From Clostridia bacterium (GTDB lineage: Bacteria; Bacillota; Clostridia; Acetivibrionales; UBA4821): 64,000 nucleotides of DNA. Positions 6,166 to 64,000 of this stretch are shown piece by piece (position 1 is the first letter of the stretch; the number at the start of each line of letters is the position of its first letter). The notes below the pieces were generated by a model. It was not told where the DNA came from, searched no databases, and saw only the letters and a program-made list of their open reading frames with translations. The translations under genes and the position numbers were made by a program. The DNA lies in the NCBI GenBank assembly GCA_041687355.1, contig JAWLCD010000010.1:2371-66370 (forward strand), in the 5' to 3' direction.

Positions 6166-6300
6166 ATAAACAGGATTCTTGGATTCAGGTGGAGTTTTTT
6201 TCTCCATCTGAATCTTAGAAGCCGTTATCCAGGGGCGTAGCGCCGCTTAGCTCCCGCTTGAAGAAGAGGGAGTCTTAGCGGCGGTAGTCATCGGATAAAA
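6166..6300 (+). repeat. RepA copy A1 (core only, 135 nt)
   Basis: ATAAACAGGATTCTTGGATTCAGGTGGAG...CTCCATCTGAATCTTAGAAGCCGTTATCCAGG..GTAGCGCCGCTTAG..GGAGTCTTAGCGGCGGTAGTCATCGGATAAAA. Sits in the divergent gap upstream of ldcA. Confidence 0.9.
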
Positions 6301-7258: not shown

Positions 7259-7286
7259 ATATTTAGAGTATTGAACCTATACGTAT

Positions 7287-7325
7287 CGTGACGTGGCCAT
7301 TCACTTCGTTCAAGGAACTTCCCCC
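7287..7325 (+). repeat. RepE copy E2
   Basis: CGTGACGTGGCCATTCACTTCGTTCAAGGAACTTCCCCC, 5' of B2. Confidence 0.75.
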
Positions 7326-7334
7326 TTTGGTTAA

Positions 7335-7412: not shown

Positions 7413-7424
7413 TGTATATAAGAT

Positions 7425-7464
7425 AAAGGGGCACGGCTACTCGCTCCGCTCAAGGAGCTTCCCC
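7425..7464 (+). repeat. RepE copy E3 (diverged)
   Basis: AAAGGGGCACGGCTACTCGCTCCGCTCAAGGAGCTTCCCC, 3' of B2. Confidence 0.65.
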
Positions 7465-7487
7465 ACTCTCCACAAGTCAAATAAGCA

Positions 7488-7546: not shown

Positions 7547-7984
7547 TTATCTCAATTCTTCTCTGTTGATGCGTATTGTATCTATAGTATCTCTTAGTAT
7601 ATCCTCAAGCTTTGCGAGAACTTCATCGGCATATTCCTTGGCGCCCTGGTGGTACTCCCTTGCTGTGTTGTGAGCATTTTCCACAATCTCCTCAGCCTTC
7701 TCCATAGCCATCTTGGTAATCTCATGCTCGTCAACCATGGACATGATTCTGCTTTCCGTATCCTTTATGACATTGTCTGCTTCTTTCTGAGCTTCATGCA
7801 GTATCCTGTGTCGTTCTTCCTTTACCCACTTAGCTTGTTTTATCTCGTCCGGCAGCTTTAATCTTATTTCCTTAATAATATCAAGTACATCATCCTTCTC
7901 CACCACGGTCTTGCCCCATATCGGTACGGTAAAACTCCTTTCGAGAATATCCTCAATTGTTTCCAACAATGCCATAATGTCCAT
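7547..7984 (-). CDS. coiled-coil protein of unknown function (ATP-synthase-b/DivIVA-like heptads)
   Basis: 145 aa, highly charged and helical. Directly downstream of coaD, with a terminator hairpin at 7494-7526. Confidence 0.5.
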   Translation of the reverse strand: MDIMALLETIEDILERSFTVPIWGKTVVEKDDVLDIIKEIRLKLPDEIKQAKWVKEERHRILHEAQKEADNVIKDTESRIMSMVDEHEITKMAMEKAEEIVENAHNTAREYHQGAKEYADEVLAKLEDILRDTIDTIRINREELR

Positions 7985-9063: not shown

Positions 9064-9307
9064 ATAAACAGGATTCTAAGATTCAGGTGGAGTTTTGGCT
9101 AATAATTTCTTGTTATCTTTGATAACTTAGAAATCATTGTCCACCTTGTGTGCTCCAACTGAATCTTAGAATCCGTTATCCAGGAACGTAGCACCGCCGT
9201 AGACTACTAGTCGCTTGATTTCGAAGAAATCTTAGCGATAGTGTCCATCTTTGATGCTCCCACTTGAATGAGAGGGGAGTCTTAGCGGTGGTAGTCATCG
9301 GATAAAA
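9064..9307 (+). repeat. RepA copy A2 (244 nt; 54-nt modules in both hairpin apices: 9101-9154 and 9203-9256)
   Basis: Same core as A1 plus two insertions. Lies between rsmD and pdp. Confidence 0.9.
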
Positions 9308-13119: not shown

Positions 13120-13160
13120 ACCAGCACCCCACAGTCAGTTAAAGCATTTAGCTTACCTAT

Positions 13161-13335
13161 ATAAACAGGATTCTTGGATTCAGGTGAAGTTTCTCCAACT
13201 GAATCTTAGAAGCCGTTATCCAGGAACTTATCGCCGCTTAGATTACTAGTCGCTTGATTTCAAAGAAATCTTAGCGATAGTGTCCATCTTTGATGCTCCC
13301 GAAGGGAGTCTTAGCGGCGGTAGTCATCGGACAAA
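13161..13335 (+). repeat. RepA copy A3 (175 nt; 54-nt module in hairpin 2 at 13242-13295)
   Basis: Lies between the FliK-like gene and rnhB. It contains the rnhB stop codon. Confidence 0.9.
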
Positions 13336-14031
13336 TCTTCTGGTGAAGCTCCTTCTATGTAATGGACATAAGCCCTTTCGTCTTATTGCTTCAATATGCT
13401 CTGCCGTACCATATCCCTTGTGCCTGGCAAATCCGTAGCCTTCATGTATTTTATCAATTTCTATAATCATTCTGTCTCTTGTAACCTTTGCAATTATGGA
13501 TGCAGCAGCAATGGACTGACTCAATGAGTCGCCTCTTACCATTGGTTTCTGCGGTACTTCTATATCTTCAAGACTTTCAGCATCAATAAACAGCACTTCG
13601 GGCTTAACCTCAAGCTGCTCCACAGCCTTCCTCATTGCAAGCCTGGTTGCGTTTAATATGTTTATTTCATCTATAATATTATTATCGACAATTCCAACTC
13701 CCCAGGCCACTGCTTCCCTTACAATAACATCAAACAATTCTTCCCTTTTCTTTTCACTTAATTTCTTCGAGTCATTGACCCCTTCTATCAATAAACCCTT
13801 TGGAAGTATGACGGCAGAAGCAACAACTGGGCCAGCAAGTGGCCCTCTACCTGCCTCGTCAATTCCGGCGATATATGTTATTCCATTGAGGTATTCTTCA
13901 TCCTCATACTGCATCAGTTTATGCAGCCTGTCCAGCTCTTTCTGTAGATACTTGCTGCCCTCTTTTGACCTTGTAGTAGTCTTTATTAGCTTATACTCCA
14001 CTTTTATCCCCCAATACTTCAGGCTCTTCAA
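13324..14031 (-). CDS. rnhB: ribonuclease HII
   Basis: Contains IAGIDEAGRGPLAGPVVASAV and DSKKLSEKKRE. The stop codon lies inside the 3' end of RepA copy A3. Confidence 0.94.
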   Translation of the reverse strand: MKSLKYWGIKVEYKLIKTTTRSKEGSKYLQKELDRLHKLMQYEDEEYLNGITYIAGIDEAGRGPLAGPVVASAVILPKGLLIEGVNDSKKLSEKKREELFDVIVREAVAWGVGIVDNNIIDEINILNATRLAMRKAVEQLEVKPEVLFIDAESLEDIEVPQKPMVRGDSLSQSIAAASIIAKVTRDRMIIEIDKIHEGYGFARHKGYGTAEHIEAIRRKGLCPLHRRSFTRRFVR

Positions 14032-17297: not shown

Positions 17298-17484
17298 TTA
17301 TCCGATGATTACCGCCGCTAAGACTCCACTCTTCTTCATCTGGGAGACAAGCGGCGCTACGTCCCTGGATAACGGCTTCTAAGATTCAGATAAAGCACAC
17401 AAGGTGGACAATGATTTCTAAGTTATCAAAGATAACAAGAAATTATTAGCCAAAACTCCTCCTGAATCCAAGAATCCTGTTTAT
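17298..17484 (-). repeat. RepA copy A4 (187 nt, inverted orientation; 54-nt module in hairpin 1 at 17394-17447)
   Basis: Reverse complement of the RepA core. Lies between rpsP and ffh and contains the ffh stop codon. Confidence 0.9.
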
Positions 17485-19322: not shown

Positions 19323-21047
19323 CTAGATATTTACTTTAAATTGGGCTACTTTCTCCCTTAAACTATCTGAGGTCACATCAAGCTTAACAGCCATCTGTTC
19401 AATCTGAGACAGTTTTGCAGCCTGCTCCTCTATGGACGCCGAGACCTCCTGAGTACTTGAAGCAGATTGCTCTGCAGCAGTAACCAGCGAACTCATTGCA
19501 GTAACAACCTCCTTACTGTTTTGGGCCTGATTCTGTGTTGCCTGTGATATCTCGTCAACCATCGCAGCAGCATGTTGAGCAGCTTCGATTATTCTCTTAA
19601 ATGATTCTTCGGTGTCATGGATTGATTGTGTTCCTTCTGCAACCTTGGCTGAGTTCAGTTCCATGGATTCTACTGCTTTGGCTGAAGACTGCTGAATTTC
19701 CTGAATAAGTCTTGCAATCTCTTTAGAAGCATTCGCGCTTTGCTCAGCCAGTTTTCGAATCTCATCCGCTACAACTGCAAAGCCTCTCCCCTGTTCACCA
19801 GCCCTTGCAGCCTCAATTGCTGCATTCAAGGCAAGCAGGTTGGTCTGGTCCGCAATCTCAGAAATCAAGTGAACTATCTCCCCTATTTGCGTAGACTTGC
19901 TTCCCAAATCTTTTATTATATGTGACAATCGGTTCACTGTATCATTAATCTCATTCATCTTCTCGATTGTAAAACCTACCGACTTGCCGCCATCCTGCGC
20001 GGAAGAGAATGTATTATCCGAAGCTTCCTTTACGCGTCCTGCTTTGTTTGCGATTTCCTGAATAAGCTTATCCAACTCAACAGTTGTCGACATTATTGAG
20101 TTAATGGTATCGGCTTGATCCTGAAATCCTCTTGCAAGTTCATCCGCAGTATGGGCAACCTGCTTTGATATTTCGGATGTTTCTGCAGTGCCCTCTGATA
20201 CCTTCCGTCCGAACTCGTTAACTTCTTCAGTTGCAGCGGAAACCGACCGTATGAGTTCACTCAGCTTTGCTGTTGCAGTATTAAAAGCTAATCCAAGGCT
20301 TCCAATCTCGTCTCTTGAACTTATTTTAACCGTCTGGGTGAGGTCTCCTGACGCCAGAAGGTTGTTTGCATTAACCAGTCTGTTTATAGGTTTTGTAAAG
20401 ATTCCGGCAACTGCTATACATATAATAATACATAGGACGATTACTAACATTGTAACTATAAGAATTGAAAAGAACAGGGTGCTTAGCTCACCATTAACAT
20501 GCTCCAAAGTATACCCTACAGCTACTACCCCCAGATTATAATTCAAACCTTCAATTCTTATAGGTACCATAACTTCATATACTTCGCTGCCATCTTTGTA
20601 TGCTAATACATTTTTTGAAACTTTTGTTATATTGTCAGGGTTCAGGGGTTGATTATTTACATTTACCTTTAATCCTTCCTTGGCCTTATCGGAATGCACA
20701 AGAGCTTTACCCGTGTCATCAGTAATATATGCATACGCAATATCATTTTGTACAGATGCTTGTTCTGTTTGTGCAGAACTATCTACTCCTGTTATTCCTT
20801 TCATAATATACCTGAGCGTTTTAAAATTCATGGTTAAGACGGCATCACTGCTTATCTCAGCAGCAGTCTGGGTTAATCTGGTACTCTGCTTCTCCAGATC
20901 ATTCCATAAGAGGTTTTTCTCATGGAAATAAACCACGGCTCCAGCAGCAGATATAATCAGACCCATTACAACTGAAAAAAATATTGCCAGTTTAAGTGAA
21001 AAGGATAGTGATACTTCTTTCTTCTGTTTCTTTATCTTATTAGACAC
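19323..21047 (-). CDS. methyl-accepting chemotaxis protein (two TM segments, extracytoplasmic sensor, HAMP, MA domain)
   Basis: 574 aa with the MA hairpin [39 protein letters not shown]. Confidence 0.93.
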
Positions 21048-46628: not shown

Positions 46629-46910
46629 TCATGTTGGGTTTTTATCAGGTATTATTTTTTTCGGAATAAGCAGATTTAATGCAGTAGGCAAAAACAATAC
46701 TGCGAGAGCAAACAACACAGATACTGCAGCAATTATCATTGACTTAAAATGAATCAGCCCGTTTAGTGTAAACACGCTCTGCTCCTGCTCGACATAGGTT
46801 CGAATATCTAAAAGATTGCTAAATGAAATTTTATACATTACAACAAACATTATTACCAAAAGAACTATATTTGCCAGTATTCTGAGTATCCTTCCAACAC
46901 CGTTTCCCAT
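46629..46910 (-). CDS. small two-TM membrane protein (hypothetical)
   Basis: 93-aa sub-ORF starting MGNGVGRILRILANIVLL. A GGGAGG RBS lies 6 nt upstream. Confidence 0.45.
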   Translation of the reverse strand: MGNGVGRILRILANIVLLVIMFVVMYKISFSNLLDIRTYVEQEQSVFTLNGLIHFKSMIIAAVSVLFALAVLFLPTALNLLIPKKIIPDKNPT

Positions 46911-47071
46911 TCCTGTCCTCCCAAGATTATATTGATTAAACGGAAATGACTTCCATGAGATAGTATACCACTTCAAGTCAATATAAATCAATTACTGTCG
47001 AACAAAACAAAAGTGACATTTTAAAAAGTTTACCTTATAATTAGAATAGAAATAGATAAGGAGATTTTTAC

Positions 47072-47602
47072 ATGAACGTTTGGCATGATTTTAATATTAC
47101 CAGAATGAAGCCCGATGACTTCTATACCGTTATTGAAATTTCCAAGGGCAGCAAGAAAAAGTATGAGATGGACAAGGAAACAGGTATGATTGTCCTGGAC
47201 AGGATACTTTACACCTCTACACATTACCCGGCTAACTACGGCTTTCTTCCCAGGACATATTCCGAAGACGGCGACCCTCTTGATGCTCTTGTCCTGTGCC
47301 AGGAAGAACTGGACCCGCTGACACTTGTGCGATGCTATCCAATCGGAGCAATCAAGATGGTCGATGATGACGAGATTGACGAAAAAATTATTGCTGTCCC
47401 TTTCAAAGACCCATCACTGACTGATTATAAAGATATAAGCGAGCTTCCGTCCCATATATTCAATGAAATATCACACTTCTTTGAAGTCTACAAACATCTT
47501 GAACATAAGGTTACAAGCGTAAAAGAAGTTCTGGGAAGGGATACTGCAGTAAAAATCATAGAAGACTGCCTGGATGCTTATAAAAAAGAATTCCCAGGCT
47601 GA
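47072..47602 (+). CDS. ppa: inorganic pyrophosphatase (family I)
   Basis: Contains YEMDKETG, YPANYGF.P.T, DGDPLDALV and DEKIIAV. Confidence 0.95.
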   Translation: MNVWHDFNITRMKPDDFYTVIEISKGSKKKYEMDKETGMIVLDRILYTSTHYPANYGFLPRTYSEDGDPLDALVLCQEELDPLTLVRCYPIGAIKMVDDDEIDEKIIAVPFKDPSLTDYKDISELPSHIFNEISHFFEVYKHLEHKVTSVKEVLGRDTAVKIIEDCLDAYKKEFPG

Positions 47603-47627
47603 TATACTCTCTCATAATAAGAAAAAC

Positions 47628-47667
47628 ATGCCGGCAGGTCAGTACTTATGTGCGGTTCTGCCGGCAT
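47628..47667. terminator. convergent-gene hairpin between ppa and the zinc-ribbon gene
   Basis: 10-bp stem ATGCCGGCAG...CTGCCGGCAT. Confidence 0.65.
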
Positions 47668-47676
47668 CTACTCTCT

Positions 47677-47955
47677 TTAATCAAAGTCAAACATTCTTTC
47701 CAGGAATGACTCTTTCTTGTGTTTCTTATGTTGATGGTATTTACGATTGTCATACTCACTATGGCGCAAATCCTTGTGTGTATCCTGATATGGATTTACA
47801 TGATGGCTGTCGTGAGTCCCACCCCTTGACTGCTCGATTATCTTGTCAAGCTCTCCGCGGTCAAGCCAGACTCCTCTGCACTTGGGGCAGTAGTCAATCT
47901 CAACATTCTGACGCTCTGTCATATGGAGCTCTACATTGCATACCGGACAATTCAT
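47677..47955 (-). CDS. zf-TFIIB-type zinc-ribbon protein
   Basis: MNCPVCNVELHMTERQNVEIDYCPKCRGVWLDRGELDKI, followed by a His-rich tail. Confidence 0.8.
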   Translation of the reverse strand: MNCPVCNVELHMTERQNVEIDYCPKCRGVWLDRGELDKIIEQSRGGTHDSHHVNPYQDTHKDLRHSEYDNRKYHQHKKHKKESFLERMFDFD

Positions 47956-48014
47956 TCTGTTTCTACCTCCTCATCTGGATGTTATGGTTTTATTAGCTTG
48001 GTTTACAAGTATTA

Positions 48015-49508: not shown

Positions 49509-49553
49509 AAGGTAGGGGGACGCGACCATTCGCTTCGCTCAAGGAACGTCCCC
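49509..49553 (+). repeat. RepE copy E4 (best stem GGGGACG/CGTCCCC)
   Basis: AAGGTAGGGGGACGCGACCATTCGCTTCGCTCAAGGAACGTCCCC, 5' of B4. Confidence 0.75.
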
Positions 49554-49610
49554 TTCTGATTATAGGGAAGATGAATTTAACTGGCGAATAAGTTTGCGGA
49601 GAAATCTTAG

Positions 49611-49741
49611 ATAAACAGGATTCTTGGGTTCAGGTGGAGTTTTGGCTCCAACTGAATCTTAGAAGCCGTTATCCAGGGACGTAGCGCCGCTTTTCTATAA
49701 TATTAAAGCTGGAGTCTTAGCGGCGGTAGTCATCGGATAAA
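49611..49741 (+). repeat. RepA copy A5 (core only, 131 nt), nested inside RepB copy B4
   Basis: The core sequence is flanked by the RepB left arm and RepC. Confidence 0.9.
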
Positions 49742-49753
49742 TTATGCGAAGTT

Positions 49754-49853
49754 ATGCTCAAATTTCAGGAAGAATTGACAGGACGTCAATTCTAGGAATT
49801 ATTGAGCCACGATGGCGAATTAATTCCGGTCTGAAATTTAGTATAACAAGCAT
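49754..49853 (+). repeat. RepC copy C2
   Basis: Differs from C1 at only a handful of positions. Confidence 0.75.
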
Positions 49854-49958
49854 CTAGTTTATCTTGATTTCGCAGTCCTTATGAGTTGCTAATTCATTTT
49901 CCCTAACTAATGAATTACCCCTTAATCACATTATATGACCTGCGTATCGGGAGGGTTC

Positions 49959-50137
49959 ATAAACAGGATTCTTGGATTCAGGTGGAGTTTTTGGCTCCAT
50001 CTGAATCTTAGAAGCCGTTATCCAGGGACGTAGCGCCGCTTAGACTACTAGTCGCTTGTTTTCAAAGAAATCTTAGCGATAGTGTCCATCTTTGATGCTC
50101 CCGAGGGGAGTCTTAGCGGCGGTAGTCATCGGATAAA
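49959..50137 (+). repeat. RepA copy A6 (179 nt; 54-nt module in hairpin 2 at 50044-50097)
   Basis: Core plus module. Lies just upstream (on the + strand) of the yebC terminator hairpin. Confidence 0.9.
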
Positions 50138-50145
50138 CTGCAAAA

Positions 50146-51126: not shown

Positions 51127-52410
51127 ATGTTGTCGAAGAAGGCTCCGCGCGTCTTACCACTGAAGATGGCACTAATGGTTAAGGATGTGAATCAGAAAGG
51201 TCAGGATTTTCTCAAGGTGTATTATGAACTGGAGGATTTATTCATGGAACTTTCCTTCTTGGAGGAAGAATCCCTGAATGCCCTTGACGACCAATACCTA
51301 CCGGAGAATTTCAATTTTGAAAATGAGTTGAACCGGCTGTATTCACGCTCAGTAGAGAAGCTTAATGAGTGGCGGGAAGCCTTAAACTCTCTGCGCCCCG
51401 AATACAAGGAATGGGCCTCCATGCAAAGCAGTATATCGCCTTCACTTAAGTTGAATGACCACATAGACATTTTTGAACCCTCACTGGAATCAATAGTAAT
51501 TGACTCCCGGCAGCTTCTTAAATCTATCAATGGATATGTTGGTGCAAGTGATGATGTTACTGCGCTTAAAAATTTACCACCTCATACGGTGACTGCTGAT
51601 GAACTTCGGTCTGAAATAAACCCTCTATTAGAATCGGCAAATACCAGACAGGAAAAAGCAGATGTATCTATTGATAAGCTGTATTTTTTCCGCGACCTGC
51701 TGCTCAATATACATTCGGTTAATGACTTCAACGCTTTCACCAGCTTGATGGATTTATTCGATGAAATTTGTTTTGCTGTGGAGGATGATTGGGGAGCATA
51801 CTATGAAGCGGTCGAGCAATTGCACTTGCGTGTTTACGAGTGGGCAACTCCTCAGCAGAAATGGAATCATCCGGTCATATCTGAGATTACGTTCCGTGCC
51901 GCCCCACACGCAGGTTTTCTAGAAACCAATCAGGTTCTAATAGACGTAATCAGCCAATGCAGCTCCCACTTTGAGAAACTGGAGAAAAGACTCAATGTTT
52001 CAAGTAAGGAAGAAAATCTTATCAGGTTCTTAACAAGACGTGCAGCTCATGAAAGGCATAACTTTCTCTCCTCAATGGAGAGACTGTATGATTTTTATAC
52101 TAAAATAAGCTGTCCGGATTCAGCTGTATATGAAGCTTCGTCCGATAACTGGAGTCATTATAGGACAGTGCGCCAAAACATTCTCAGAAACTACCGTGAC
52201 TTCAGAAAATACACACAAATGCTTATCGATAACTATAATAATGCTGTTGATTCAGGCCTAGCTTTACGAACTGCAAATTCCGTTCAGATTGAAGAACTGC
52301 TGAATTATTATAGGGGAAATATTATCTGCCTCAAGCGTAACATGAGGCGAATGCTCAGGTGGAGTAGAAAAAGAATTAAGAGGATGGAAGGAAGAAAATC
52401 TATTATATAA
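51127..52410 (+). CDS. hypothetical 427-aa helical protein (no recognisable domain)
   Basis: A GAAGGGGG RBS lies 7 nt upstream of the ATG. A terminator follows at 52420-52448. The C-terminal tail is basic (RRMLRWSRKRIKRMEGRK). Confidence 0.7.
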   Translation: MLSKKAPRVLPLKMALMVKDVNQKGQDFLKVYYELEDLFMELSFLEEESLNALDDQYLPENFNFENELNRLYSRSVEKLNEWREALNSLRPEYKEWASMQSSISPSLKLNDHIDIFEPSLESIVIDSRQLLKSINGYVGASDDVTALKNLPPHTVTADELRSEINPLLESANTRQEKADVSIDKLYFFRDLLLNIHSVNDFNAFTSLMDLFDEICFAVEDDWGAYYEAVEQLHLRVYEWATPQQKWNHPVISEITFRAAPHAGFLETNQVLIDVISQCSSHFEKLEKRLNVSSKEENLIRFLTRRAAHERHNFLSSMERLYDFYTKISCPDSAVYEASSDNWSHYRTVRQNILRNYRDFRKYTQMLIDNYNNAVDSGLALRTANSVQIEELLNYYRGNIICLKRNMRRMLRWSRKRIKRMEGRKSII

Positions 52411-52448: not shown

Positions 52449-52595
52449 AAATATCTCATCAAGTTGTTACGTTCTTCAGAAAATTATGATAGAATAGAAT
52501 ATAACATAAATTGGATTTATTGTTGATGTAGGATTCTATGTCAGGACGTTAGTGAAACCAAATAACAATTTTTGTTTGAAGGGAGGATGTTTAAA

Positions 52596-53087
52596 TTGTA
52601 CTCTAATGAACTGCAGCAATCCATGCGCTGTGAACCTGAGATACCCGGTCTGGGAACTACCAGCAGCATATGGTTCTATCTTAAACACCCTCTGAAGGCA
52701 GCAGATAAAAAAAGACATACACTTAAGCTGTTGATTGAGAGTACGAAGGTTTTCTGGCGCCATTTGGCCGTGTCACATTCAACTGACACTATAACAACTC
52801 TAAAAGATTTGACCGAACAGGTAGACAAGCAGGCTGTGCAATTCGAAACCGAATACGCATCCTATGTTTATTTATGTAGGTATATTGAATACGTATTCGG
52901 CCAATGGATTGGAACCGAGGAACATTTAAACTGCGGCGATTTCTGGGACATAAAGTATTCAGTTATCCACCATATTGAACCAGGAAAACTTAACGACGAG
53001 TTTAAAAAACATAATCAAGCCTGTAAAGAGGAACTGGAGAGGCTCAGAAGTATAATCAACAAAGATAAAATGGACAAATCATCATGA
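52596..53087 (+). CDS. hypothetical ~163-aa protein (no recognisable domain)
   Basis: The ORF opens at 52572. TTG at 52596 is 9 nt after GAAGGGAGG, and the ATG at 52587 is too close to the RBS. A terminator hairpin follows at 53107-53131. Confidence 0.55.
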   Translation: MYSNELQQSMRCEPEIPGLGTTSSIWFYLKHPLKAADKKRHTLKLLIESTKVFWRHLAVSHSTDTITTLKDLTEQVDKQAVQFETEYASYVYLCRYIEYVFGQWIGTEEHLNCGDFWDIKYSVIHHIEPGKLNDEFKKHNQACKEELERLRSIINKDKMDKSS

Positions 53088-53106: not shown

Positions 53107-55130
<2,024 letters not shown>

Positions 55131-55195: not shown

Positions 55196-56053
55196 CTACA
55201 TTGTACCTGTATTCTTCTCCTCCTGGAAGCTTATTGCCTCAAGCAGCAGCTCTTCTGCCTCCTCAATCCCGGAGGGTACAGGCAGAAGAATTCCCCGTTT
55301 ATTCAGTCTTCTGAATAATTCTACTATAACCGGAGGCTCAAGATTAGCCTCCCTGATTGTTTCAGCCATTGAAAATATTTCAGCCGGTGTTCCCCTGGCA
55401 GCAATATGTCCACGGTTCAATACATATATGACATCTGCTATCTCCGGCACAACATTAATATCATGTGTGGTAACTAAAATAGTTGTACCAAAACTGCGGT
55501 TAAGCCTGTTAAGTAGGTTCATTATCTCCCTCTTGGCTCCCGGATCAAGCCCATCAAAGGGTTCGTCCAGAACCAGCAGCTGTGGATTGGTAACCATTGC
55601 CCCTGCCAGAGCCACCTTTTTTTTCTGCCCTCCGCTGAGGTAATGAGGAACCTTATTTAGAAGCTCACATATACCCAACTCCATGCAGACATTTTTAACA
55701 CACTCATCAATTTCTTCTTTCTTCCGGCCTTCATTCCTTAGTGAAAAAGCAATATCATCAAAAACGGTCGGACCTATTATCTGCTCATCAACATTCTGAA
55801 AGACTACGCCCATTTCTTTTCTCAGCTTCCTGAAGTCTTTTTTGGGGTTCATGCCGGCAACCGTAATTTCCCCCTCAACGGGTTCAAGAAGTCCCAGAAT
55901 ATGAGACAGCAGAGTGGTCTTGCCTGCACCGTTAGGTCCAAGAACAGCAACCCTCTCCCCTTTGTTTACAATAAAATCAAGTCCGCATATTCCAACCTCT
56001 GTTTTATCCGGGTAAACATGCCTTATGCACCTTACCTTTACCAGCTCGTCCAT
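55196..56053 (-). CDS. cbiO: ECF/cobalt-type ABC transporter ATP-binding protein
   Basis: GPNGAGKTT, LSGGQKKKVALA and LLVLDEP. Start at the ATG at 56053 (MDELVKV), overlapping cbiQ by 16 nt. Confidence 0.9.
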   Translation of the reverse strand: MDELVKVRCIRHVYPDKTEVGICGLDFIVNKGERVAVLGPNGAGKTTLLSHILGLLEPVEGEITVAGMNPKKDFRKLRKEMGVVFQNVDEQIIGPTVFDDIAFSLRNEGRKKEEIDECVKNVCMELGICELLNKVPHYLSGGQKKKVALAGAMVTNPQLLVLDEPFDGLDPGAKREIMNLLNRLNRSFGTTILVTTHDINVVPEIADVIYVLNRGHIAARGTPAEIFSMAETIREANLEPPVIVELFRRLNKRGILLPVPSGIEEAEELLLEAISFQEEKNTGTM

Positions 56054-56754
56054 GGTATCACTCCTATCAGCAGTACAGACAGTCCGAAAAATATTGGTAG
56101 AACATCCACAGTTTTCGGAACATTCCACACCGCTCCGGTTTGCAGTTTTCCTTCATATCCTCTCAGGGTATAGATATTATACATACGTTCTGACATGTCG
56201 AAAGTATTGATTATCAGCATTCCCAATGTACCCGCAGTGCTTTTCAGATAAAAAAACAGGTTCGCAGGCCTTAGCCCACCTCTGAGTCTAAGCATGGACA
56301 GCGTGCTTTGAATTTTGTCTGTCAAAATAAAGATTATTCTATATGTGAAGAACATTGCGTCTACAATAATGTCCGGTAAAAATAACCGCATTATGGAAAA
56401 CAGATGCGTATAAGGCGTTGATGCTATAACTACCAGTAAGCCTGCAGCTATCCCCATCGACTTTAAAGTAATAAGCAGTCCACCGGTTATGCTGTAGGAT
56501 GATTTAATGACTGCGAAGGGCAGACTGAAAAGAAAGGGATACAAAAGGAAATAGAGTACCCTTTTGAAACTAATTCCGGTAAACCTAGTAAGAATCAAAA
56601 CGACAGCTAGTATTGCAGCAGCCTTGACCCAGTCTCCAATCATTATCATGGTCACCGTTATCAGTACAGCCATTATGACCTTGGACAAGACCGAAGATTT
56701 ATTAAGCCATGTATTCTCATTATTTGAAATATAATCTATATAGGCTAAATCCAC
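56038..56754 (-). CDS. cbiQ: ECF/cobalt transporter transmembrane (T) component
   Basis: 238 aa, multi-pass, with the C-terminal ARG-type motif region (MLRLRGG). An AGGAGG RBS is present. Confidence 0.85.
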   Translation of the reverse strand: MDLAYIDYISNNENTWLNKSSVLSKVIMAVLITVTMIMIGDWVKAAAILAVVLILTRFTGISFKRVLYFLLYPFLFSLPFAVIKSSYSITGGLLITLKSMGIAAGLLVVIASTPYTHLFSIMRLFLPDIIVDAMFFTYRIIFILTDKIQSTLSMLRLRGGLRPANLFFYLKSTAGTLGMLIINTFDMSERMYNIYTLRGYEGKLQTGAVWNVPKTVDVLPIFFGLSVLLIGVIPWTSW

Positions 56755-56782: not shown

Positions 56783-56827
56783 AAGGTAGAGGGACGCGTC
56801 ATTCGCTTCGCCCAAGAAACGTCCTCC
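56783..56827 (+). repeat. RepE copy E5
   Basis: AAGGTAGAGGGACGCGTCATTCGCTTCGCCCAAGAAACGTCCTCC, in the cbiM-cbiQ gap. Confidence 0.75.
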
Positions 56828-56837
56828 TTGATTACCA

Positions 56838-56874
56838 TGGTCACACCATTCACTTCACTCAAGGAACTTCCCCC
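56838..56874 (+). repeat. RepE copy E6
   Basis: TGGTCACACCATTCACTTCACTCAAGGAACTTCCCCC, in tandem with E5. Confidence 0.7.
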
Positions 56875-56896
56875 TTTGATTAAATGAGTCAATCTG

Positions 56897-57640
56897 TTAG
56901 CTGTGTCCTTTCAGCATCTCCGGCCTCACCTTCAGAAAATACCTTACAATCAGCACTGTCACAAGGGTCTCAATGACAATACCCAGTCCCCACATGAACC
57001 CCAGTGCCATCCAGCCGCTTTGAAACAGAAACCTCGTTTCAGAAGGGCTTACATTATGCCCATTACCATGGTCGTGAATTTCTCCGGCCGTAATATGGTG
57101 CTCGTTGTTTCCCTGGTCCTCACTGTGGTGATGTTCGTCCGGGGCATGGTTATGCATCAGCGTACTTTCCCAACCTGCGTTGGTTACGCCTACAATACCA
57201 ACCATGAGTGAGGTTGAAATCAGTAATGCAGTCACTGTTGCAGCAGCAGCTGATGCAGCGGGTTTAATTCTTTCTTTAAGCACTATAAATAAGAACCATC
57301 CTATCAATGCTTGCGAACCTACGATAAGGGTGTTTAGCCCAACAACAGTTATACCTCCATGGCCCAGCATGGCAAGTATCAAATTAACTATAAATACAGC
57401 TGTAAAGACTACCCATGGTCCGGTCAGAATTCCTGCCAGAACTGCAAGGTTTGCATGCAAGGGGAAGGACATTACAACCAGCATTAGAGCACTTATAACA
57501 CCAATCATGGGAACCTTTTTCGCAATATTCCCATATTTAAGATTCTTAACACAGAAACCCAGCATTACAAACACAGCTATAAAGCTTGGCACCCAGAGTA
57601 CAGGTGATATTACTCCATCCGGCAAATGAATATGATTCAA
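56897..57640 (-). CDS. cbiM: CbiM/NikM-family metal (Co/Ni) uptake substrate component with His-rich loop
   Basis: N-terminus MNHIHLPDG (canonical is MHIPDG) and 6-7 TM segments. The His-rich loop is HNHAPDEHHHSEDQGNNEHHITAGEIHDHGNGH. Confidence 0.8.
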   Translation of the reverse strand: MNHIHLPDGVISPVLWVPSFIAVFVMLGFCVKNLKYGNIAKKVPMIGVISALMLVVMSFPLHANLAVLAGILTGPWVVFTAVFIVNLILAMLGHGGITVVGLNTLIVGSQALIGWFLFIVLKERIKPAASAAAATVTALLISTSLMVGIVGVTNAGWESTLMHNHAPDEHHHSEDQGNNEHHITAGEIHDHGNGHNVSPSETRFLFQSGWMALGFMWGLGIVIETLVTVLIVRYFLKVRPEMLKGHS

Positions 57641-57663: not shown

Positions 57664-58077
57664 CTACGACGTCTGACACTGGGAACAGTAGCCATATACT
57701 TCAAGCTTGTGGCCTGTTACCTTGAAGCTTCCGTCCCGGCATACCTTCCTTTCGAGCTCTTGCACCGGGCATTCCTTAAGCTCCATGGTTCTCTTGCAGT
57801 TCAAGCATATTGCATGGTGGCTGTGTCTATCCGAGACGGCCTGGTACCTGTATTTATTGTCGCCAAAATTGAGCTTGTTTAACAATCCTTTTTTGCAAAG
57901 CAAATCAACTGTCCTGTATATTGTACTGAGATTGGTTGAGGGATTCAGCTTCTTAACTTCAAAGAAGATTTCCTCAGCAGTCATACAATGTTTACTGACT
58001 GCCAGGACCTTAATTATATCCGAGCGCTGTTTTGTTATCTTATATCCCTTGTCTGCAAAGTTTCCTTTTATATTCAA
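57664..58077 (-). CDS. Fur family metal-responsive transcriptional regulator
   Basis: 137 aa with a winged helix (TKQRSDIIKVL...STIYRTVDLL), HHAICLNC and a C-terminal CSQC. Lies 23 nt upstream of cbiM. Confidence 0.88.
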   Translation of the reverse strand: MNIKGNFADKGYKITKQRSDIIKVLAVSKHCMTAEEIFFEVKKLNPSTNLSTIYRTVDLLCKKGLLNKLNFGDNKYRYQAVSDRHSHHAICLNCKRTMELKECPVQELERKVCRDGSFKVTGHKLEVYGYCSQCQTS

Positions 58078-58120: not shown

Positions 58121-58156
58121 GCTATTATATTATGGCTTTATATTCCTGTCAATATA

Positions 58157-58189
58157 CAAAAAAACAGACAAACACCCGTCTGTTTTTTG
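58157..58189. terminator. bidirectional-type terminator between the pseudo-PP2C gene and the fur-like operon
   Basis: AAAAAAA-CAGAC-AAACACCC-GTCTG-TTTTTT. Confidence 0.8.
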
Positions 58190-58234: not shown

Positions 58235-59881
58235 TCAATCTTTTATTCTCATAACAACAAAGGCGATATCAGAATCTATATAACTACCGGACAGTGCCCT
58301 TGTCATATTATGTGTTATGTTTTCTTCAACTTCAACCAGAGGCTTATCATGTCTTGCTTTCAGGGTCTCTTCCACAACCCTTAAAATACTTTGCTCAATA
58401 TCTGAAGGCGTATCCGGGCTGCACCCAGGAAAAAAGACAACCAACTGCTTTCCTTTAAGCGTCAGTTTTCCTTCGGTAATCCTTTGGGACTGGTCTTCCC
58501 CAGCATTTCGCTGTTCACTGCCTTTAAGTTCAATTAGCCTGAAACCTGTTTGAGGATCAAATACCATAATGCTGTTCCGTGTACCTGTATATGCGTATAC
58601 TAAAGAATTCAGGTCAGGGTTATATGAAGCCAGCATGAGGGAAATATCATTCTCAACCTTCAGTTCATCGTAGTGCTTTAGTACTTTTTCCAGCACCCGC
58701 TTAAGGGACAGCCCGTTGAGTTCATGATTTGATATTACAGTCCTTATTGTTTGGTCAAGAAAAATCGAAAGCATTGTTGAAGGAATACCACGGCTGGATA
58801 TGTTTCCGGTTAGAATCCCTATGCTATTGTTATCCAGGTGTATCAAGTCGTAGAATTGCCCAGTGATTTCATTACCTGCAGCATACCTTGAATACATCTC
58901 TGCTGCTGCACAGTCTATGTGCTTCGCGGGAAGTATCATTTTTTTTATATCCCTGGCATATCCCAGGTCTATCAGTAGTTTCTCATTAACCTCCCTGATT
59001 TTTGCCGTCCCCTCCTCAACCAGTAACTTAAGGTCATTGGTATATCTACCCAAATCGGCCCGTGCATCCGCAAGCTGGGCATAGGGCTTTCTAACACTGA
59101 ACGTAAACATAGACTGAAACAACAGAAACCCAGCTGTAATCCGCAGCAGATGACCTATTACTTCATAGCTGTCTGTGACTGTGTAGTGCCCTGTGAATAG
59201 CGCCTCAACTACCACCTGAATAAAAACAGCCGCTGCCAGCATCTGCATCCCTGGTTCCCTTCTTCTGAAAAACTCCATTATATACTTGATAAGAGCAATT
59301 ATCAGAAATCCAATAACTATATATTGGCACACTTCAAGGTAAATCCCCATGGATTCACTTGGGAAGTTTAAGGCACCTTCCCTTATGGTTTGGGTTATAA
59401 ATAGAATATTAATAAATGTAACAAGTGTCAGAATCATGGTCCTTGAATAATACCGTTTGCTATCCATAGTGATGAATGCTGCAGCCAGAATTCCAATACC
59501 AAACAGCAGTCTTGCAGCCGCATATAATTTAAAGGCAGTATAATCTGAAGCGGCTAAGTGGCTATATACTGTTCCCTCATAGGTAAGGTTATGAAATACA
59601 TCTATAAGTGCTACATTTACCAGGACTACTCCTATTACTACGGTTCTTAAGTTCTTTGACCAGCTGTAAGAGTAGAAGGTAACCAGGAAAGTCATAATAT
59701 ATATGAATATGCATATACCTTCCAGTATACTATGTCCTGCCAAATAACCGGCTTCTGACTTAAACTTCTCAAAGAGAAAAACAGCAGGTATAATCACTGC
59801 TAATACCAAAGCAGCCAAAAAAACAAGTCCTCTGTATTCAACTGCAGTGTTTAACACATTATTTCTTTTAACTTCAGGCAT
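58235..59881 (-). CDS. membrane sensor (MASE3-like) with degenerate SpoIIE/PP2C domain (predicted pseudophosphatase)
   Basis: 548 aa with about 8 TM segments. The PP2C fold is present but the metal-binding Asp motifs are replaced: TGQFYD for GGDFxx, GNISSRG for GDVSGHG, FFPGCS for YTDGLV. Confidence 0.75.
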   Translation of the reverse strand: MPEVKRNNVLNTAVEYRGLVFLAALVLAVIIPAVFLFEKFKSEAGYLAGHSILEGICIFIYIMTFLVTFYSYSWSKNLRTVVIGVVLVNVALIDVFHNLTYEGTVYSHLAASDYTAFKLYAAARLLFGIGILAAAFITMDSKRYYSRTMILTLVTFINILFITQTIREGALNFPSESMGIYLEVCQYIVIGFLIIALIKYIMEFFRRREPGMQMLAAAVFIQVVVEALFTGHYTVTDSYEVIGHLLRITAGFLLFQSMFTFSVRKPYAQLADARADLGRYTNDLKLLVEEGTAKIREVNEKLLIDLGYARDIKKMILPAKHIDCAAAEMYSRYAAGNEITGQFYDLIHLDNNSIGILTGNISSRGIPSTMLSIFLDQTIRTVISNHELNGLSLKRVLEKVLKHYDELKVENDISLMLASYNPDLNSLVYAYTGTRNSIMVFDPQTGFRLIELKGSEQRNAGEDQSQRITEGKLTLKGKQLVVFFPGCSPDTPSDIEQSILRVVEETLKARHDKPLVEVEENITHNMTRALSGSYIDSDIAFVVMRIKD

Positions 59882-59895
59882 ACTCTTCTCCTCTG

Positions 59896-60084
59896 ATAAA
59901 CAGGATTCTTAGGTTCAGGTGGAGTTTTAGGCTAATAATTTCTTGTTATCTTTGATAACTTAGAAATCATTGTCCACCTTGTGTGCTCCGACTGAATCTT
60001 AGAAGCCGTTATCCAGGGACGTAGCGCCGCTTCTCCCTCACTTGAAGAAGAGGGGAGTCTTAGCGGCGGTAGTCATCGGATAAA
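59896..60084 (+). repeat. RepA copy A7 (189 nt; 54-nt module in hairpin 1 at 59934-59987)
   Basis: Fills the whole gap between the two PP2C genes. Confidence 0.9.
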
Positions 60085-60085
60085 A

Positions 60086-61810
60086 TTATTTTGCTTCCAG
60101 CAGAATAAATGAGACATCATCATTGAATCTGTCCTGGCAGGTAAATTGTTTCAGGTCACACACAATGGACTCAACTATTCTGTCCAAACTATTTCCGGAA
60201 TTTTCCGCAATTAGTTTTTCGAGCTTATCCCTGCCGTACCTGCTGCCCAGTAAATCCTCAGAATCTACCAAGCCATCGGTATACAACAGTATCCTGTCCC
60301 CAGTGTTAAGTTTTAAAAGCTTGTCTTCAAAATCTCCAGGAACCAGTCCCGGCAGTTTACATATGGGAAAACCCCCGGTCTTAAGGTACTTAGCAGTTCC
60401 CCCAGAATTGAATACTATAGGGATAGTATTCATCCCTGCAGAACAGAACCTGAAATCTTTTGTTCGAAGGTTATAAACTGCATAAAATAAGCCTATATAC
60501 ATATCTTCATCAAAACTGCTGTAGTTAAAGGCGTCGTACACCATTCTCTGAACCTGAGCGGGAGCAGACAAATCATACCTGCCTGTTAAATTATCCTTCT
60601 GAACCGCTGATGCTATGGTCTGATTCACAAACATTGTCAGCATAGCAGCCCGGACACCATGCCCGGATACATCTCCAATGTATATGCCTATATTTTCTTC
60701 ATCCACCCTGATAACTCTGCAAAAGTCACCGCCCAGAGCCTGGCATGGCCTGTACTCCACATAGAATTCCATACCTTTCAGGCAGAAGTGGCTGGCCGGA
60801 ATCATTTTCATCTGTATGTTCTTTGCTATTTCAATATCACTTAAAAGTTTTTCATTTACCCTGCCTATTTCAAATGTTTTTTCAGTTATGAGTGCTTCAA
60901 GGTTTTCGGTATGCTCTTCAAGCTTCTCCCTTGCAAGGTCTAGCTCACTGTATGGCTTTTGAACATAGCAGAAAAAAATTGCTCTGAACAGAAGATATCC
61001 AGCTCCTACCCTGAGCAGTAGAGCCGCATAATTAAAGGAATGTCCTACTTCAGGGGAAAGTTCATAAAGAAAATGGCTCGATATGCTGCATACTATCGAA
61101 AGAACTATGAAACCGATATGCTTTTCGTGCTGCTTGAGGTATTCTCTGGCTAATAATACGGCTGCCAGAAAGTAACAGATTATTATAAGCCATCTTAAGC
61201 CGAAATAGTTTATAACCGGATTGCCTGGTGGGCTGCTGTAGAATGATTCAAGTATGGTACAAATACTTCCTATATTATTGGCTATTAGAAAATATATCCC
61301 TAATATTCCGATGACTGCAGCCAGTATCGTAGGAATTACAATGGAATTTCTCCTGATTGTGGTGACTGCGTCAACTCCTATCAGGGCAAAAACTATAAGC
61401 CCTGCTGATTTTATCAACCTTCCAGCAAAGTATGCAGTCTGGGCAAAAAAATAATCCGGCTGGTTTAATTTCTCAACCTCAAGATATGCAAGCATATGCA
61501 CAGTATCAAGAATTGCCACAACTAAAAAGATTAAACAAAGAGTAATTGTCCTTACTCTTTTGGTATGGGTAAAAGCATGGTAAGTAGAAAGGAATATTAC
61601 TATTGAGAACATCACACTCATGGAGTCAAAAAGAGTATGCCAGATAAATTCCAACTTATAATAGCTCAGCAGGATATTAGCTGCATCAATTAATGCAGCA
61701 CACAGTATTATCACCATTAAAGGCTTGAAAATCACCTTGTATCTGTCCAGCATCCTGCCTGCTGTACTTATTAAGACTGTTCCATCTTTCATTCCGTCTC
61801 GACCCCACAC
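60086..61810 (-). CDS. membrane sensor (MASE3-like) SpoIIE/PP2C-family protein phosphatase
   Basis: 574 aa, multi-pass N-terminus. Canonical motifs are present: LGGDFCRV, GDVSGHGVRAAM, LYTDGLVD and NDDVSFILL. Confidence 0.85.
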   Translation of the reverse strand: MWGRDGMKDGTVLISTAGRMLDRYKVIFKPLMVIILCAALIDAANILLSYYKLEFIWHTLFDSMSVMFSIVIFLSTYHAFTHTKRVRTITLCLIFLVVAILDTVHMLAYLEVEKLNQPDYFFAQTAYFAGRLIKSAGLIVFALIGVDAVTTIRRNSIVIPTILAAVIGILGIYFLIANNIGSICTILESFYSSPPGNPVINYFGLRWLIIICYFLAAVLLAREYLKQHEKHIGFIVLSIVCSISSHFLYELSPEVGHSFNYAALLLRVGAGYLLFRAIFFCYVQKPYSELDLAREKLEEHTENLEALITEKTFEIGRVNEKLLSDIEIAKNIQMKMIPASHFCLKGMEFYVEYRPCQALGGDFCRVIRVDEENIGIYIGDVSGHGVRAAMLTMFVNQTIASAVQKDNLTGRYDLSAPAQVQRMVYDAFNYSSFDEDMYIGLFYAVYNLRTKDFRFCSAGMNTIPIVFNSGGTAKYLKTGGFPICKLPGLVPGDFEDKLLKLNTGDRILLYTDGLVDSEDLLGSRYGRDKLEKLIAENSGNSLDRIVESIVCDLKQFTCQDRFNDDVSFILLEAK

Positions 61811-61839: not shown

Positions 61840-62721
61840 TTACTCTTGCTGGGAACTCTGCTCACTATGATATTCTACAAACTGTTTACCGTTCCACTTG
61901 TACCATGACCTATGGATAATATCTTCAGATATGCTGGAGGTATAAAGTTCCATTCTACCATCGTGGTCAAAATCCTTTACTTCCAGTTCAGGACCTGAAT
62001 CACGAGTATAAAATTCGGAAAAGCTTCTCCCTACCATAACCAGAACTTTTATCATGCTGGTTCCGGTTCCTTCTGGATCTTTTTGCAGGAAGGAGAACTC
62101 TTTGTTCCCTCCTGTAATTATATCTCCTGAAACCACTTCGCTTAACTGAACGCTGTAACCATCCTGTTTAAGCACAGAATCTATATCCTTTATAAATTTA
62201 CCGTTTTCGTATCTTATTGCAGAAAACATTAAATACTTTTGGTCTCCCTCCGGCTTTTCATACATTATACCCAACTCTCTTGTTCCATCATTATTCAGGT
62301 CGTCCATGCAGTAGGAGACTATAGTACAACTGCCTGGAACAAACAGGTTAATATTGTTATCAATAAACCCGGCTACTTTCTCCCAATTCAGTACGCCATC
62401 ATTTATCAGAGTATACTTCTGCGCGCTTAGCACTGCATTGATACTCCTCACATCTACTTCACCAACTATATTGGATAAGGTAGGAACTTCAGTTTGGTTT
62501 GAGGGACCGCTGACTGACAGGCCGCCACTGTCATCACTATCCTTAGCACTGCCAGCTTGTCCATCAGGCAGCTGGTTGGCTGTAGGACTAGCATTATAAT
62601 TCTGAAGCTTTTCCCCCTGATTATTTAACAAAAATACCAGAATTATGGCCAGAATGATGCAAAATGAAATAACAGTAGACATGACAATTATAAAAAACTT
62701 CCGTGGCTCGATATTCTTCAT
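61840..62721 (-). CDS. membrane-anchored hypothetical protein with FG-GAP/VCBS-like DxDxDG loops
   Basis: 293 aa with an N-terminal TM segment and a low-complexity linker, plus DDLNNDGTRELG and DFDHDGRMELY. Confidence 0.6.
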   Translation of the reverse strand: MKNIEPRKFFIIVMSTVISFCIILAIILVFLLNNQGEKLQNYNASPTANQLPDGQAGSAKDSDDSGGLSVSGPSNQTEVPTLSNIVGEVDVRSINAVLSAQKYTLINDGVLNWEKVAGFIDNNINLFVPGSCTIVSYCMDDLNNDGTRELGIMYEKPEGDQKYLMFSAIRYENGKFIKDIDSVLKQDGYSVQLSEVVSGDIITGGNKEFSFLQKDPEGTGTSMIKVLVMVGRSFSEFYTRDSGPELEVKDFDHDGRMELYTSSISEDIIHRSWYKWNGKQFVEYHSEQSSQQE

Positions 62722-62846: not shown

Positions 62847-64000
62847 TTACAGACTATTCTTTTTCTTCACAAGTCCCAGCAGCACATGCTTCTGATTCAG
62901 GCTTGGGTCTTCCAGAACTTTTTTTATAAGATAATTCAATGCAGCTTTTATATCCTGTCCCTCTCTGACCCCTGCATTTAGTAAGTCATTCCCATTAACC
63001 ACCAACTCCTTTAAACTCAGTGGGTCTCCGGAATTCAGCACTTTCCTGTATATACCTTCAATCATCCTTTGTTGCTCAAGCTTTTCATCAAGGTATCTGC
63101 TTCCCTGAGCTCTGATATCGGCATTCCTGATTAACAGGTAGTCTTCGAAATCTTCCTTGCCTATTCTGTATACTGCCTTACGAACTGACACCTCACAAGG
63201 CTTTATTCTATAATCGTGCCACCTTACAAGCCTGATAACTTTCTCCCTGGTGCGATTATCGTACTTCATCCTCTTCATAATTGTATCGGCTATCTTGACA
63301 CTCATTATTTCATGATTGTAGAAGTGCCCCACACCATTTTTGTCCACAGTTTTAGTATATATCTTCCCTACATCATGAAAAAGCATTGCAAGCCTTAACT
63401 GTAGTTGAGGGTTGATATTTCCAACTGACTTGATGGTATGTTCAAATAAACTGAATTCATGGTGAGGGTTATTCTGGGAGAAATCAACGCTTTGTTCAAT
63501 TTCAGGCAGGACTTCCCCAAGAAGGCCTGTCAGGTGTAAGAGACGCAGACCTTTCTCCACTTTTTCAGCAACCAATATTTTATTGAATTCCTCACGTATC
63601 CTTTCAACCGCAATTCTATTAATCAGCTCTGCATTAGCCTGTATTGCCTTAATAACATCAGAGTCAAGTTCAAAATCCAGCTGAACTGCAAACCTAACCG
63701 CTCGTATCATCCTCAACGCATCTTCCCTGAAACGTTCGGAAGAGCTGCCCACACACCTAATTATCCCGGACTTAATGTCTTCAGTACCTTGACTGTAATC
63801 AATCAATCCCTCGGCAGGGCTAAAAGCAATTGCATTGATGGTAAAGTCCCTTCTTGCTAGGTCTTCCTGAAGGGATGAAACAAACTCGACCGAATCAGGC
63901 CTCCTGCTGTCCGAATAAGAGCTTTCCCTTCTGTATGTAGTCACCTCTACCATTTCACCGTCCTGTACCACAGATACTGTACCATGTTTTAGCCCTGTAT
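62847..64000 (-). CDS. cca: CCA tRNA nucleotidyltransferase with HD domain (partial; N-terminus beyond the window)
   Basis: GLKHGTVSVV and RRDFTINAIA motifs, plus an HD domain (FHDVGK). The reading frame is open to position 64000. Confidence 0.9.
   Translation of the reverse strand, partial: TGLKHGTVSVVQDGEMVEVTTYRRESSYSDSRRPDSVEFVSSLQEDLARRDFTINAIAFSPAEGLIDYSQGTEDIKSGIIRCVGSSSERFREDALRMIRAVRFAVQLDFELDSDVIKAIQANAELINRIAVERIREEFNKILVAEKVEKGLRLLHLTGLLGEVLPEIEQSVDFSQNNPHHEFSLFEHTIKSVGNINPQLQLRLAMLFHDVGKIYTKTVDKNGVGHFYNHEIMSVKIADTIMKRMKYDNRTREKVIRLVRWHDYRIKPCEVSVRKAVYRIGKEDFEDYLLIRNADIRAQGSRYLDEKLEQQRMIEGIYRKVLNSGDPLSLKELVVNGNDLLNAGVREGQDIKAALNYLIKKVLEDPSLNQKHVLLGLVKKKNSL

Follow-up and report, generated by a model that had tools for sequence, protein, structure and literature searches.

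In Chlamydia trachomatis, RsbU (CT588) and CT589 are adjacent membrane-spanning paralogues, of which CT589 lacks the metal ligands of the phosphatase active site (PMC4552016). This is the closest precedent for the two genes considered here, which lie in a 64,000-nt stretch of DNA (the window: contig JAWLCD010000010.1, positions 2,371–66,370) from a Clostridia bacterium of the UBA4821 lineage. The genes are arranged head to tail on the minus strand: the upstream one encodes a predicted active PP2C (PPM) phosphatase of 574 amino acids (aa), and the downstream one a 548-aa paralogue that we predict to be a pseudophosphatase. As in Chlamydia, the genes are adjacent paralogues, both products couple an outer or membrane sensor to a cytoplasmic PP2C domain, and one of the two has lost its metal ligands. 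The Chlamydia pair differs in its phylum, in having a periplasmic domain with a HAMP linker rather than an integral-membrane MASE3 domain, and in that the Chlamydia genome encodes RsbV/RsbW partners, whereas none were found near the window pair. Common descent of the two pairs is unlikely, as their sensor domains differ.

Activation of RsbU/RssB-type PPM phosphatases proceeds through a crossing coiled-coil linker that dimerises the phosphatase domains, a mechanism proposed to be general across sensor types (PMC12143880). Bacillus subtilis RsbU and Pseudomonas aeruginosa RssB resemble the window proteins in combining a sensor, a crossing helical linker and a PPM domain that dimerises via alpha0–alpha2 (PMC12143880). 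By sequence and by structure, both window proteins match P. aeruginosa RssB best. RsbU and P. aeruginosa RssB differ from the pair in that each homodimerises with two active subunits and has an N-terminal domain that bears no relation to MASE3. To our knowledge, no dimer of one active and one dead subunit has been described for either of them.

A non-catalytic PP2C domain is also found in Escherichia coli RssB, the ClpXP adaptor for sigma-S. This protein has been termed a pseudophosphatase (PMC6546054, PMC10755785). It is a structural neighbour (6z4e, 8t85) of the 548-aa model, and in both proteins a degenerate PP2C domain follows a helical linker and serves, presumably so in the 548-aa protein, a function other than catalysis. 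Unlike that protein, RssB is soluble, with a receiver-domain input, a truncated PP2C domain and no neighbouring active paralogue. No receiver domain (Response_reg) was matched by Pfam in the 548-aa protein, whose N-terminus is MASE3, so it does not have the architecture of an RssB-type adaptor.

MASE3-SpoIIE phosphatases encoded by a lone gene occur fairly often in Clostridia, both Tissierellales-like and other. Those of Tissierella, Sedimentibacter, Gudongella and Ruminiclostridium, annotated as "SpoIIE family protein phosphatase" or "RsbU", are 28–33% identical to the 574-aa protein and share with it the same three-part architecture (about 555–565 aa), the catalytic motifs and a linker motif, PYxEL...LVEERTxEL...N..L..D.EYA..IQ..LLP. 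They differ in being single genes, with no dead partner at the loci inspected. A literature search found no paper naming MASE3 together with SpoIIE. The idea of a dead PP2C paralogue is itself not new, and the window pair is an independent Bacillota case built on MASE3.

The pair comprises the following features.

60086–61810, minus strand: active paralogue, 574 aa from a GTG at 61810 (open reading frame list), with MASE3, coiled-coil linker and SpoIIE/PP2C phosphatase domain
60953–61645, minus strand: MASE3 membrane sensor domain of the active paralogue, aa 56–286 (Pfam PF17159)
60095–60700, minus strand: SpoIIE/PP2C catalytic domain of the active paralogue, aa 371–572 (Pfam PF07228)
59882–60085, no strand assigned: intergenic spacer of 204 bp, containing a repeat copy at 59896–60085
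58235–59881, minus strand: putative pseudophosphatase paralogue, 548 aa (open reading frame list, Pfam), with MASE3, coiled-coil linker and degenerate PP2C domain
59084–59752, minus strand: MASE3 domain of the pseudophosphatase, aa 44–266 (Pfam PF17159)
58922–59083, minus strand: coiled-coil signalling linker of the pseudophosphatase, aa 267–320 (identity among orthologues, column audit)
58238–58921, minus strand: degenerate PP2C domain of the pseudophosphatase, aa 321–548 (alignments, hmmalign, codon check)

The public gene call for the active paralogue (P0002) has 568 aa, implying an ATG at 61792, which is the probable true start. Both proteins match the MASE3 profile over its full length and belong to the PP2C fold. 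The MASE3 domain of the active paralogue scores 69.2 bits (E = 5.1e-19, profile positions 8–226 of 226) and is outscored by that of the pseudophosphatase, at 103.1 bits (E = 2.2e-29, positions 4–226 of 226); an earlier sequence-only reading had called both N-terminal domains MASE3-like, and both indeed lie well above the Pfam cutoff of 31 bits. The SpoIIE match, for which the cutoff is 25 bits, reaches 126.7 bits in the active paralogue (E = 1.4e-36) and barely passes in the pseudophosphatase (25.3 bits, E = 1.7e-5, aa 352–546). The two proteins are paralogues, sharing 26% identity over 458 aa (BLASTP, E = 3e-43). The phmmer matches of the 574-aa protein include P. aeruginosa RssB (3eq2, 5.4e-17), Rv1364c, and SiaA, and its NCBIfam RssB match covers the linker and PP2C part only (66 bits against a cutoff of 700).

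SpoIIE coordinates metal M1 with Asp628, Asp746, and Asp795, and M2 with Asp610, Asp628, and the Gly629 backbone (PMC3517971). We took as the mark of a catalytically competent PPM the presence of four aspartates (D610, D628, D746, and D795 of SpoIIE) together with the DxxGHG motif. The 574-aa protein has the complete ligand set, D362, D380, D512, and D565, and the GHG, in the motifs LGGDF, GDVSGHG, YTDG, and NDDVS (alignments, hmmalign, and codon check); judged by its sequence it should be a competent phosphatase, as had been proposed. The 548-aa protein has Q342, N360, and P485 at these positions and keeps D538. The motif LGGDF corresponds to TGQFY (D to Q342, codon 58856–58858), and GDVSGHG to GNISSRG (D to N360, codon 58802–58804; G to S363; H to R364). 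YTDGL corresponds to FFPGC (D to P485, codon 58427–58429), and in the pairing of NDDVS with DSDIA the first aspartate is replaced by S537 and the second is retained as D538 (codon 58268–58270). The flap motif of the active family, GFPICKL, reads GSEQRNAG.

The same motif register was obtained with BLASTP, phmmer against P. aeruginosa RssB 3eq2, two MAFFT alignments, and hmmalign, and in each of them three of the four acidic ligands are missing, as the sequence-only reading had noted. The possibility that the ligands persist in a shifted register, which that reading had left to be checked, was rejected: the alignment methods agree, and the orthologues described below have no acidic residues nearby. 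Among 169 PP2C relatives aligned with hmmalign, 155 read DDGHDDD at the catalytic positions, and the Asp set is missing solely in the three proteins of the pseudophosphatase clade (QNSRPSD, QSSQGTD, and QSYNEKD). The active site of the 548-aa protein is thus predicted to be no longer able to bind two catalytic metal ions, which makes the protein a predicted pseudophosphatase.

An exhaustive HMMER search of 1.84 billion representative proteins (cluster representatives) identified two full-length orthologues of the pseudophosphatase, P0122 (543 aa, 36% identity) and P0123 (551 aa, 34%); all remaining matches were at most 32% identical. A word-indexed homologue search with the pseudophosphatase, or with the three-sequence profile, returned the query alone, and searches of GTDB representative genomes and JGI metagenomes with the pseudophosphatase profile added no members. 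Both orthologues carry the Asp-to-Gln replacement at the first ligand and keep the last Asp, with SSASQG and SLPYNG in place of DVSGHG, and AGG and AED in place of TDG. The two orthologous loci repeat the tandem arrangement. The dead gene of L002 lies 15 bp downstream of an intact MASE3-SpoIIE gene, whose product (P0003) is 42% identical to the active protein of the window; that of L001 lies 22 bp downstream of the 3' part of such a gene, with the motifs ALGGDF, GDVSGHG, YTDG, and EDDVT. Both dead genes have their own ribosome-binding sites. The flanks of L002 are syntenic with the window, in the order CCA-adding enzyme, a 293-aa membrane-anchored protein, the active gene, the dead gene and, further on, LigA. 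Since the orthologues share the Asp-to-Gln change and the tandem position, the 548-aa protein is, on comparative grounds, a conserved pseudoenzyme and not a decaying gene.

In a neighbor-joining tree of the linker and PP2C regions, the dead proteins form a monophyletic clade (100% bootstrap) on a long stem, nested within the Bacillota MASE3-SpoIIE proteins, which implies that catalysis was lost here independently of Chlamydia. The branching order within this clade, (window,(L001,L002)), is mirrored by the clade of active partners (100% and 95% support), and therefore the pair appears to have been inherited together since before these lineages split; it has been kept in three lineages diverged to about 35–42% identity. 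No tandem MASE3 pair was present among the 80 loci recovered by a scan with the active-family profile, none of them above 32% identity. As to sampling, no close relatives of the pair were found in GTDB representative genomes. The source lineage is very poorly sampled; ribosomal protein L19 (15005–15349), LigA (53124–55112), and the two phosphatase-family proteins each stand alone when about 15 billion proteins are clustered at 90% identity. SLH, flagellar, and Clostridia-like features point to Bacillota.

Different parts of the dead protein have been conserved to different degrees. Among the three orthologues, identity is 34–47% in MASE3, 50–65% in the linker, and 30–39% in the PP2C part, compared with 42, 43, and 45%, respectively, among the active partners. 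The linker is thus the best-conserved segment, and it is 31–41% identical to the linker of the active proteins. We audited 57 alignment columns with at least 85% conservation across 27 active members of the family. All three dead proteins keep 22 of these columns, including 11 of the 13 linker columns, and all three lack another 21, namely the ligands, V-x-G-H, the flap PICK, T-D in TDG, and the leading D of the DD pair. Q342, K313, and S368-T369 are clade-specific replacements constant in all three.

The AlphaFold2 model of the 548-aa protein, built from a 19-sequence alignment, has a mean predicted local distance difference test score (pLDDT) of 78.6 and contains eight membrane helices, the last of which is continuous with the linker (helix 238–316) and is followed by a beta-sandwich. 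Confidence is lowest in the flap region (aa 455–464, pLDDT below 50). The top Foldseek matches of the model are PP2C domains (template modeling score 0.75–0.79; RssB 3f79, E = 2.4e-10), with RssB, RsbX, Rv1364c, SpoIIE, and SiaA as neighbors and the pseudophosphatases E. coli RssB and TAB1 also among the matches. In the model, the PP2C fold is therefore retained.

Taken together, the parts needed for a dimer (MASE3, the linker, and the PP2C core) are kept, the parts needed for chemistry and docking are lost, and the dead protein is always encoded immediately after one particular active paralogue. From this we infer a pairing of the two paralogues in which the dead one modulates activation of the active one and adds a second sensory input, a reading to which we assign a probability of roughly one half; that it acts as a non-catalytic regulator of some kind is probable. 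The active gene product would be a membrane-bound PP2C (PPM) serine phosphatase whose activity is presumably set by its MASE3 sensor via the coiled-coil linker, and the pseudophosphatase, an ancient paralogue built in the same way, would pair with it through the MASE3 helices and the crossing linker helices. Because PPMs are switched on by linker zipping and dimerization of the phosphatase domains, such a mixed dimer would have one catalytic site; the dead partner could keep the active subunit inactive or prime it for activation, and would contribute the second sensory input. This heteromeric model, one of two options raised by the sequence-only reading, is in line with the compact operons of L001 and L002, with the parallel divergence of the two clades, and with the selective retention of the linker. 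In the window, the absence of terminator or promoter consensus between the genes and the presence of a terminator-like hairpin after the second are consistent with one transcription unit.

The spacer of the window differs from the 15–22 bp of the orthologous loci in containing a dispersed repeat that begins just downstream of the active gene's stop codon. The sequence-only reading had placed a copy of a repeat, "RepA", between the genes; the copy is real (59896–60085) and is one of seven in the window, with a core of about 135 nt (families D1/D3/D8, by alignment and blastn).

6166–6300, 9064–9307, 13157–13336, 49610–49742, 49959–50138, and 59896–60085, plus orientation: repeat copies
17298–17484, inverted: repeat copy
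58159–58188, minus strand: terminator-like hairpin with a 13-bp stem and a T-run, just past the pseudophosphatase stop (consensus scan, pattern match only)
58152–58124, minus strand: predicted sigma-70 promoter, 12/12 match to the consensus TTGACA-17-TATAAT, preceding a Fur-family gene at 57664–58077 (consensus scan)

The element consists of two conserved hairpin modules, with optional loop inserts of about 55–60 nt in some copies; RNAalifold gives 47 pairs, only two of them with compensatory changes. The copy in the spacer is predicted to form a pair of long hairpins whichever strand is folded (z about -4.2 and -4.4). On the minus strand, the spacer RNA folds at -63.1 kcal/mol (z = -4.2) and leaves the downstream ribosome-binding site of the dead gene (AGGAG, about 59889–59893, 7 nt upstream of the start) unpaired. 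The repeat had no Rfam match at gathering or permissive thresholds, and its candidacy as a known RNA was rejected, as was that as a promoter or terminator, there being no such consensus on the minus (coding) strand between the two genes. The core also occurs in six short metagenome contigs (80–90% identity); since their flanks are unrelated, the repeat appears to be a mobile or recurrent element common to other organisms. Given the short orthologous spacers, it is a secondary insertion into the operon, missing from L001 and L002, and it could alter the relative expression of the two cistrons. The hairpin past the dead gene probably ends the transcription unit, and together with the promoter it marks a sharp predicted boundary between transcription units (58124–58188).

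Several observations weigh against pairing. MASE3 identity between the dead and active proteins is only 20–27%, which may be too low for a mixed transmembrane dimer, and the alpha1 switch helix is partly altered in the dead proteins (AA to ST). The 204-bp structured insertion could uncouple the two genes in this genome. In the tree, the dead clade is not resolved as sister of the partner clade, the deep nodes having less than 40% bootstrap. The family is very rare, with three sequences, all from metagenome-type assemblies, and three gene pairs are too few for a co-evolution analysis. A stricter version of the pairing model, in which an obligate asymmetric heterodimer forms a mixed coiled coil under two different MASE3 sensors and the dead subunit serves as the allosteric switch of a single active site, is put forward as a tentative possibility.

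The best-surviving alternative, which we nonetheless consider rather unlikely, is that the dead paralogue is a stand-alone, non-catalytic sensor-adaptor of the E. coli RssB kind: a homodimer reading its own MASE3 signal, whose remodelled PP2C surface binds a partner protein and sequesters or delivers it. It would have no contact with the active paralogue, and the adjacency would be due to duplication and a shared pathway. The low MASE3 identity to the partner speaks for such independence, as do a MASE3 score above that of the active paralogue and the presence of the adaptor E. coli RssB and of TAB1 among the structural neighbors. The replacements conserved in all three orthologues (Q342, K313, S368-T369), being clade-specific, suggest a newly selected surface. 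Yet the tight, translationally coupled spacing of 15–22 bp and the strict co-inheritance with one active paralogue fit a complex better, and no stand-alone dead copy was seen in about 25 MASE3-SpoIIE loci of named genomes.

Substrate trapping is a classic mode of action for pseudophosphatases, and the PP2C fold is retained in the model. On this reading, the competitive option of the sequence-only reading, the dead paralogue would bind a phosphorylated substrate, e.g., a phospho-STAS protein, without hydrolysis and so compete with the active enzyme. We regard this as improbable. The flap GFPICK is at least 89% conserved in the 27 active relatives, yet each of the three dead proteins has unrelated residues there that are not conserved among them. 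This weakens the idea, because the substrate docking interface of SpoIIE and RsbU includes the flap and switch loops, and the metals help to position the substrate (PMC11418112). In addition, no candidate substrate gene lies near the locus among the open reading frames scanned.

It is still less probable that the 548-aa frame is a decaying duplicate without function, or that only its MASE3 part still matters. The marginal SpoIIE score, the long stem branch with the highest root-to-tip distances in the tree (0.93–0.98 versus about 0.78), and the upstream repeat insertion in this genome would all suit decay. Against this, full-length frames of 543–551 aa persist in three lineages at 34–36% identity with Q342 and the 22 family-conserved columns in common; PP2C identity (30–39%) is only modestly below the 45% of the active partners, the fold is predicted with confidence, and the ribosome-binding site is strong. 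Although Gln and Asn are able to ligate Mg2+/Mn2+, and D538 and the invariant D350 are retained, we give very little credence to a residual phosphatase or other hydrolase activity through alternative ligands (Gln/Asn carbonyls with D538). The replacements are not conserved as ligands (N/S/S at position 360, P/G/E at 485, and S-R, S-Q, or Y-N within GHG, with Q342 alone constant), and losing either carboxylate set removes both M1 and M2 as defined in SpoIIE (PMC3517971).

The suggestion that the pair regulates a partner-switching pathway was not borne out. Pfam was run on 57 open reading frames of at least 100 aa in the window, a set that leaves out seven mid-sized frames between 33.9 and 44.2 kb, and none of the 57 has a STAS or anti-sigma kinase domain; to that extent, the earlier statement that such genes are absent from the window holds. 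They are likewise absent from L001 and L002 and from the positions next to the inspected related MASE3-SpoIIE genes. A link to partner switching is therefore unsupported: no module with a STAS substrate and a HATPase_c anti-sigma kinase nearby was seen among the scanned window frames or in either orthologous locus. The genes identified in the window by these scans are housekeeping and other genes, including those for RpoD, DnaG, Ffh, fatty-acid synthesis, LigA, CbiMQO, Fur, and a methyl-accepting chemotaxis protein (MCP). A second 574-aa frame (19323–21047) was discounted as an unrelated methyl-accepting chemotaxis protein.

One neighbor of the pair is conserved.

61840–62721, minus strand: conserved syntenic neighbor immediately upstream of the active gene, 293 aa, membrane anchor at the N-terminus

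Its product also contains a spacer rich in Ser, Gly, and Gln and a beta-rich domain in which DxDxDG-like motifs occur, and no Pfam or NCBIfam family matched it; a single-sequence AlphaFold2 model reached a pLDDT of 44.8. The gene at the same position in L002 (3943–4824) encodes a protein 35% identical to it (E = 5e-54), and since this neighbor is conserved directly upstream of the active gene there, it could belong to the same module as the phosphatase pair. In L002, a third MASE3 protein, a MASE3-PAS-HisKA-HATPase histidine kinase (205–2472), lies just upstream of the gene for the CCA-adding enzyme, bringing three MASE3 sensors within 8 kb; the counterpart position in the window would lie beyond base 64000.

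Elsewhere, the genome is unusually rich in short intergenic repeats. TwoAYGGAY RNA motifs (Rfam RF01731, cutoff 43) were detected at 1178–1305 and 49731–49878, both on the plus strand (45.5 and 56.8 bits), in repeat-rich intergenic regions, the second between two RepA copies. Repeat family D4 (1184–1341 and 49752–49909, 92% identical) overlaps these regions. Family D2, of about 53 nt and 62–91% identity, occurs at 1023–1075, 7281–7333, 7421–7473, 49510–49562, 56783–56835, and 56830–56882, the last two copies standing in tandem between the genes for CbiQ (56038–56754) and CbiM (56897–57640); family D6 occurs at 1288, 7366, 9426, and 49856. Frames of 120–427 aa had no Pfam match at 51127–52410, 52572–53087, and 47574–47996 on the plus strand and at 46629–46991 and 7547–7984 on the minus strand, located on the minority strand or between housekeeping genes; the 427-aa and 171-aa frames also had no NCBIfam match.

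Regulation of an active paralogue by a pseudoenzyme is well documented among the kinases and phosphatases of eukaryotes, and we know of few cases in bacterial Ser/Thr phosphatase signaling. The practical weight of the window pair is limited by its tiny clade of three sequences from uncultured Bacillota. It would nevertheless be a second, independently evolved example beside Chlamydia RsbU/CT589, in an area where Chlamydia genetics has been difficult. If the obligate heterodimer were true, the pair would be a bacterial counterpart of kinase/pseudokinase pairs, with a first defined role for a membrane pseudo-PP2C, and could also explain the RsbU/CT589 pair. MASE3 is a widespread membrane sensor domain for which we know of no established ligand, and the pair would give it a tractable readout. 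With one dead subunit that keeps its linker, it is a natural test of the RsbU-family model, i.e., of whether activation needs two active sites or only two bodies.

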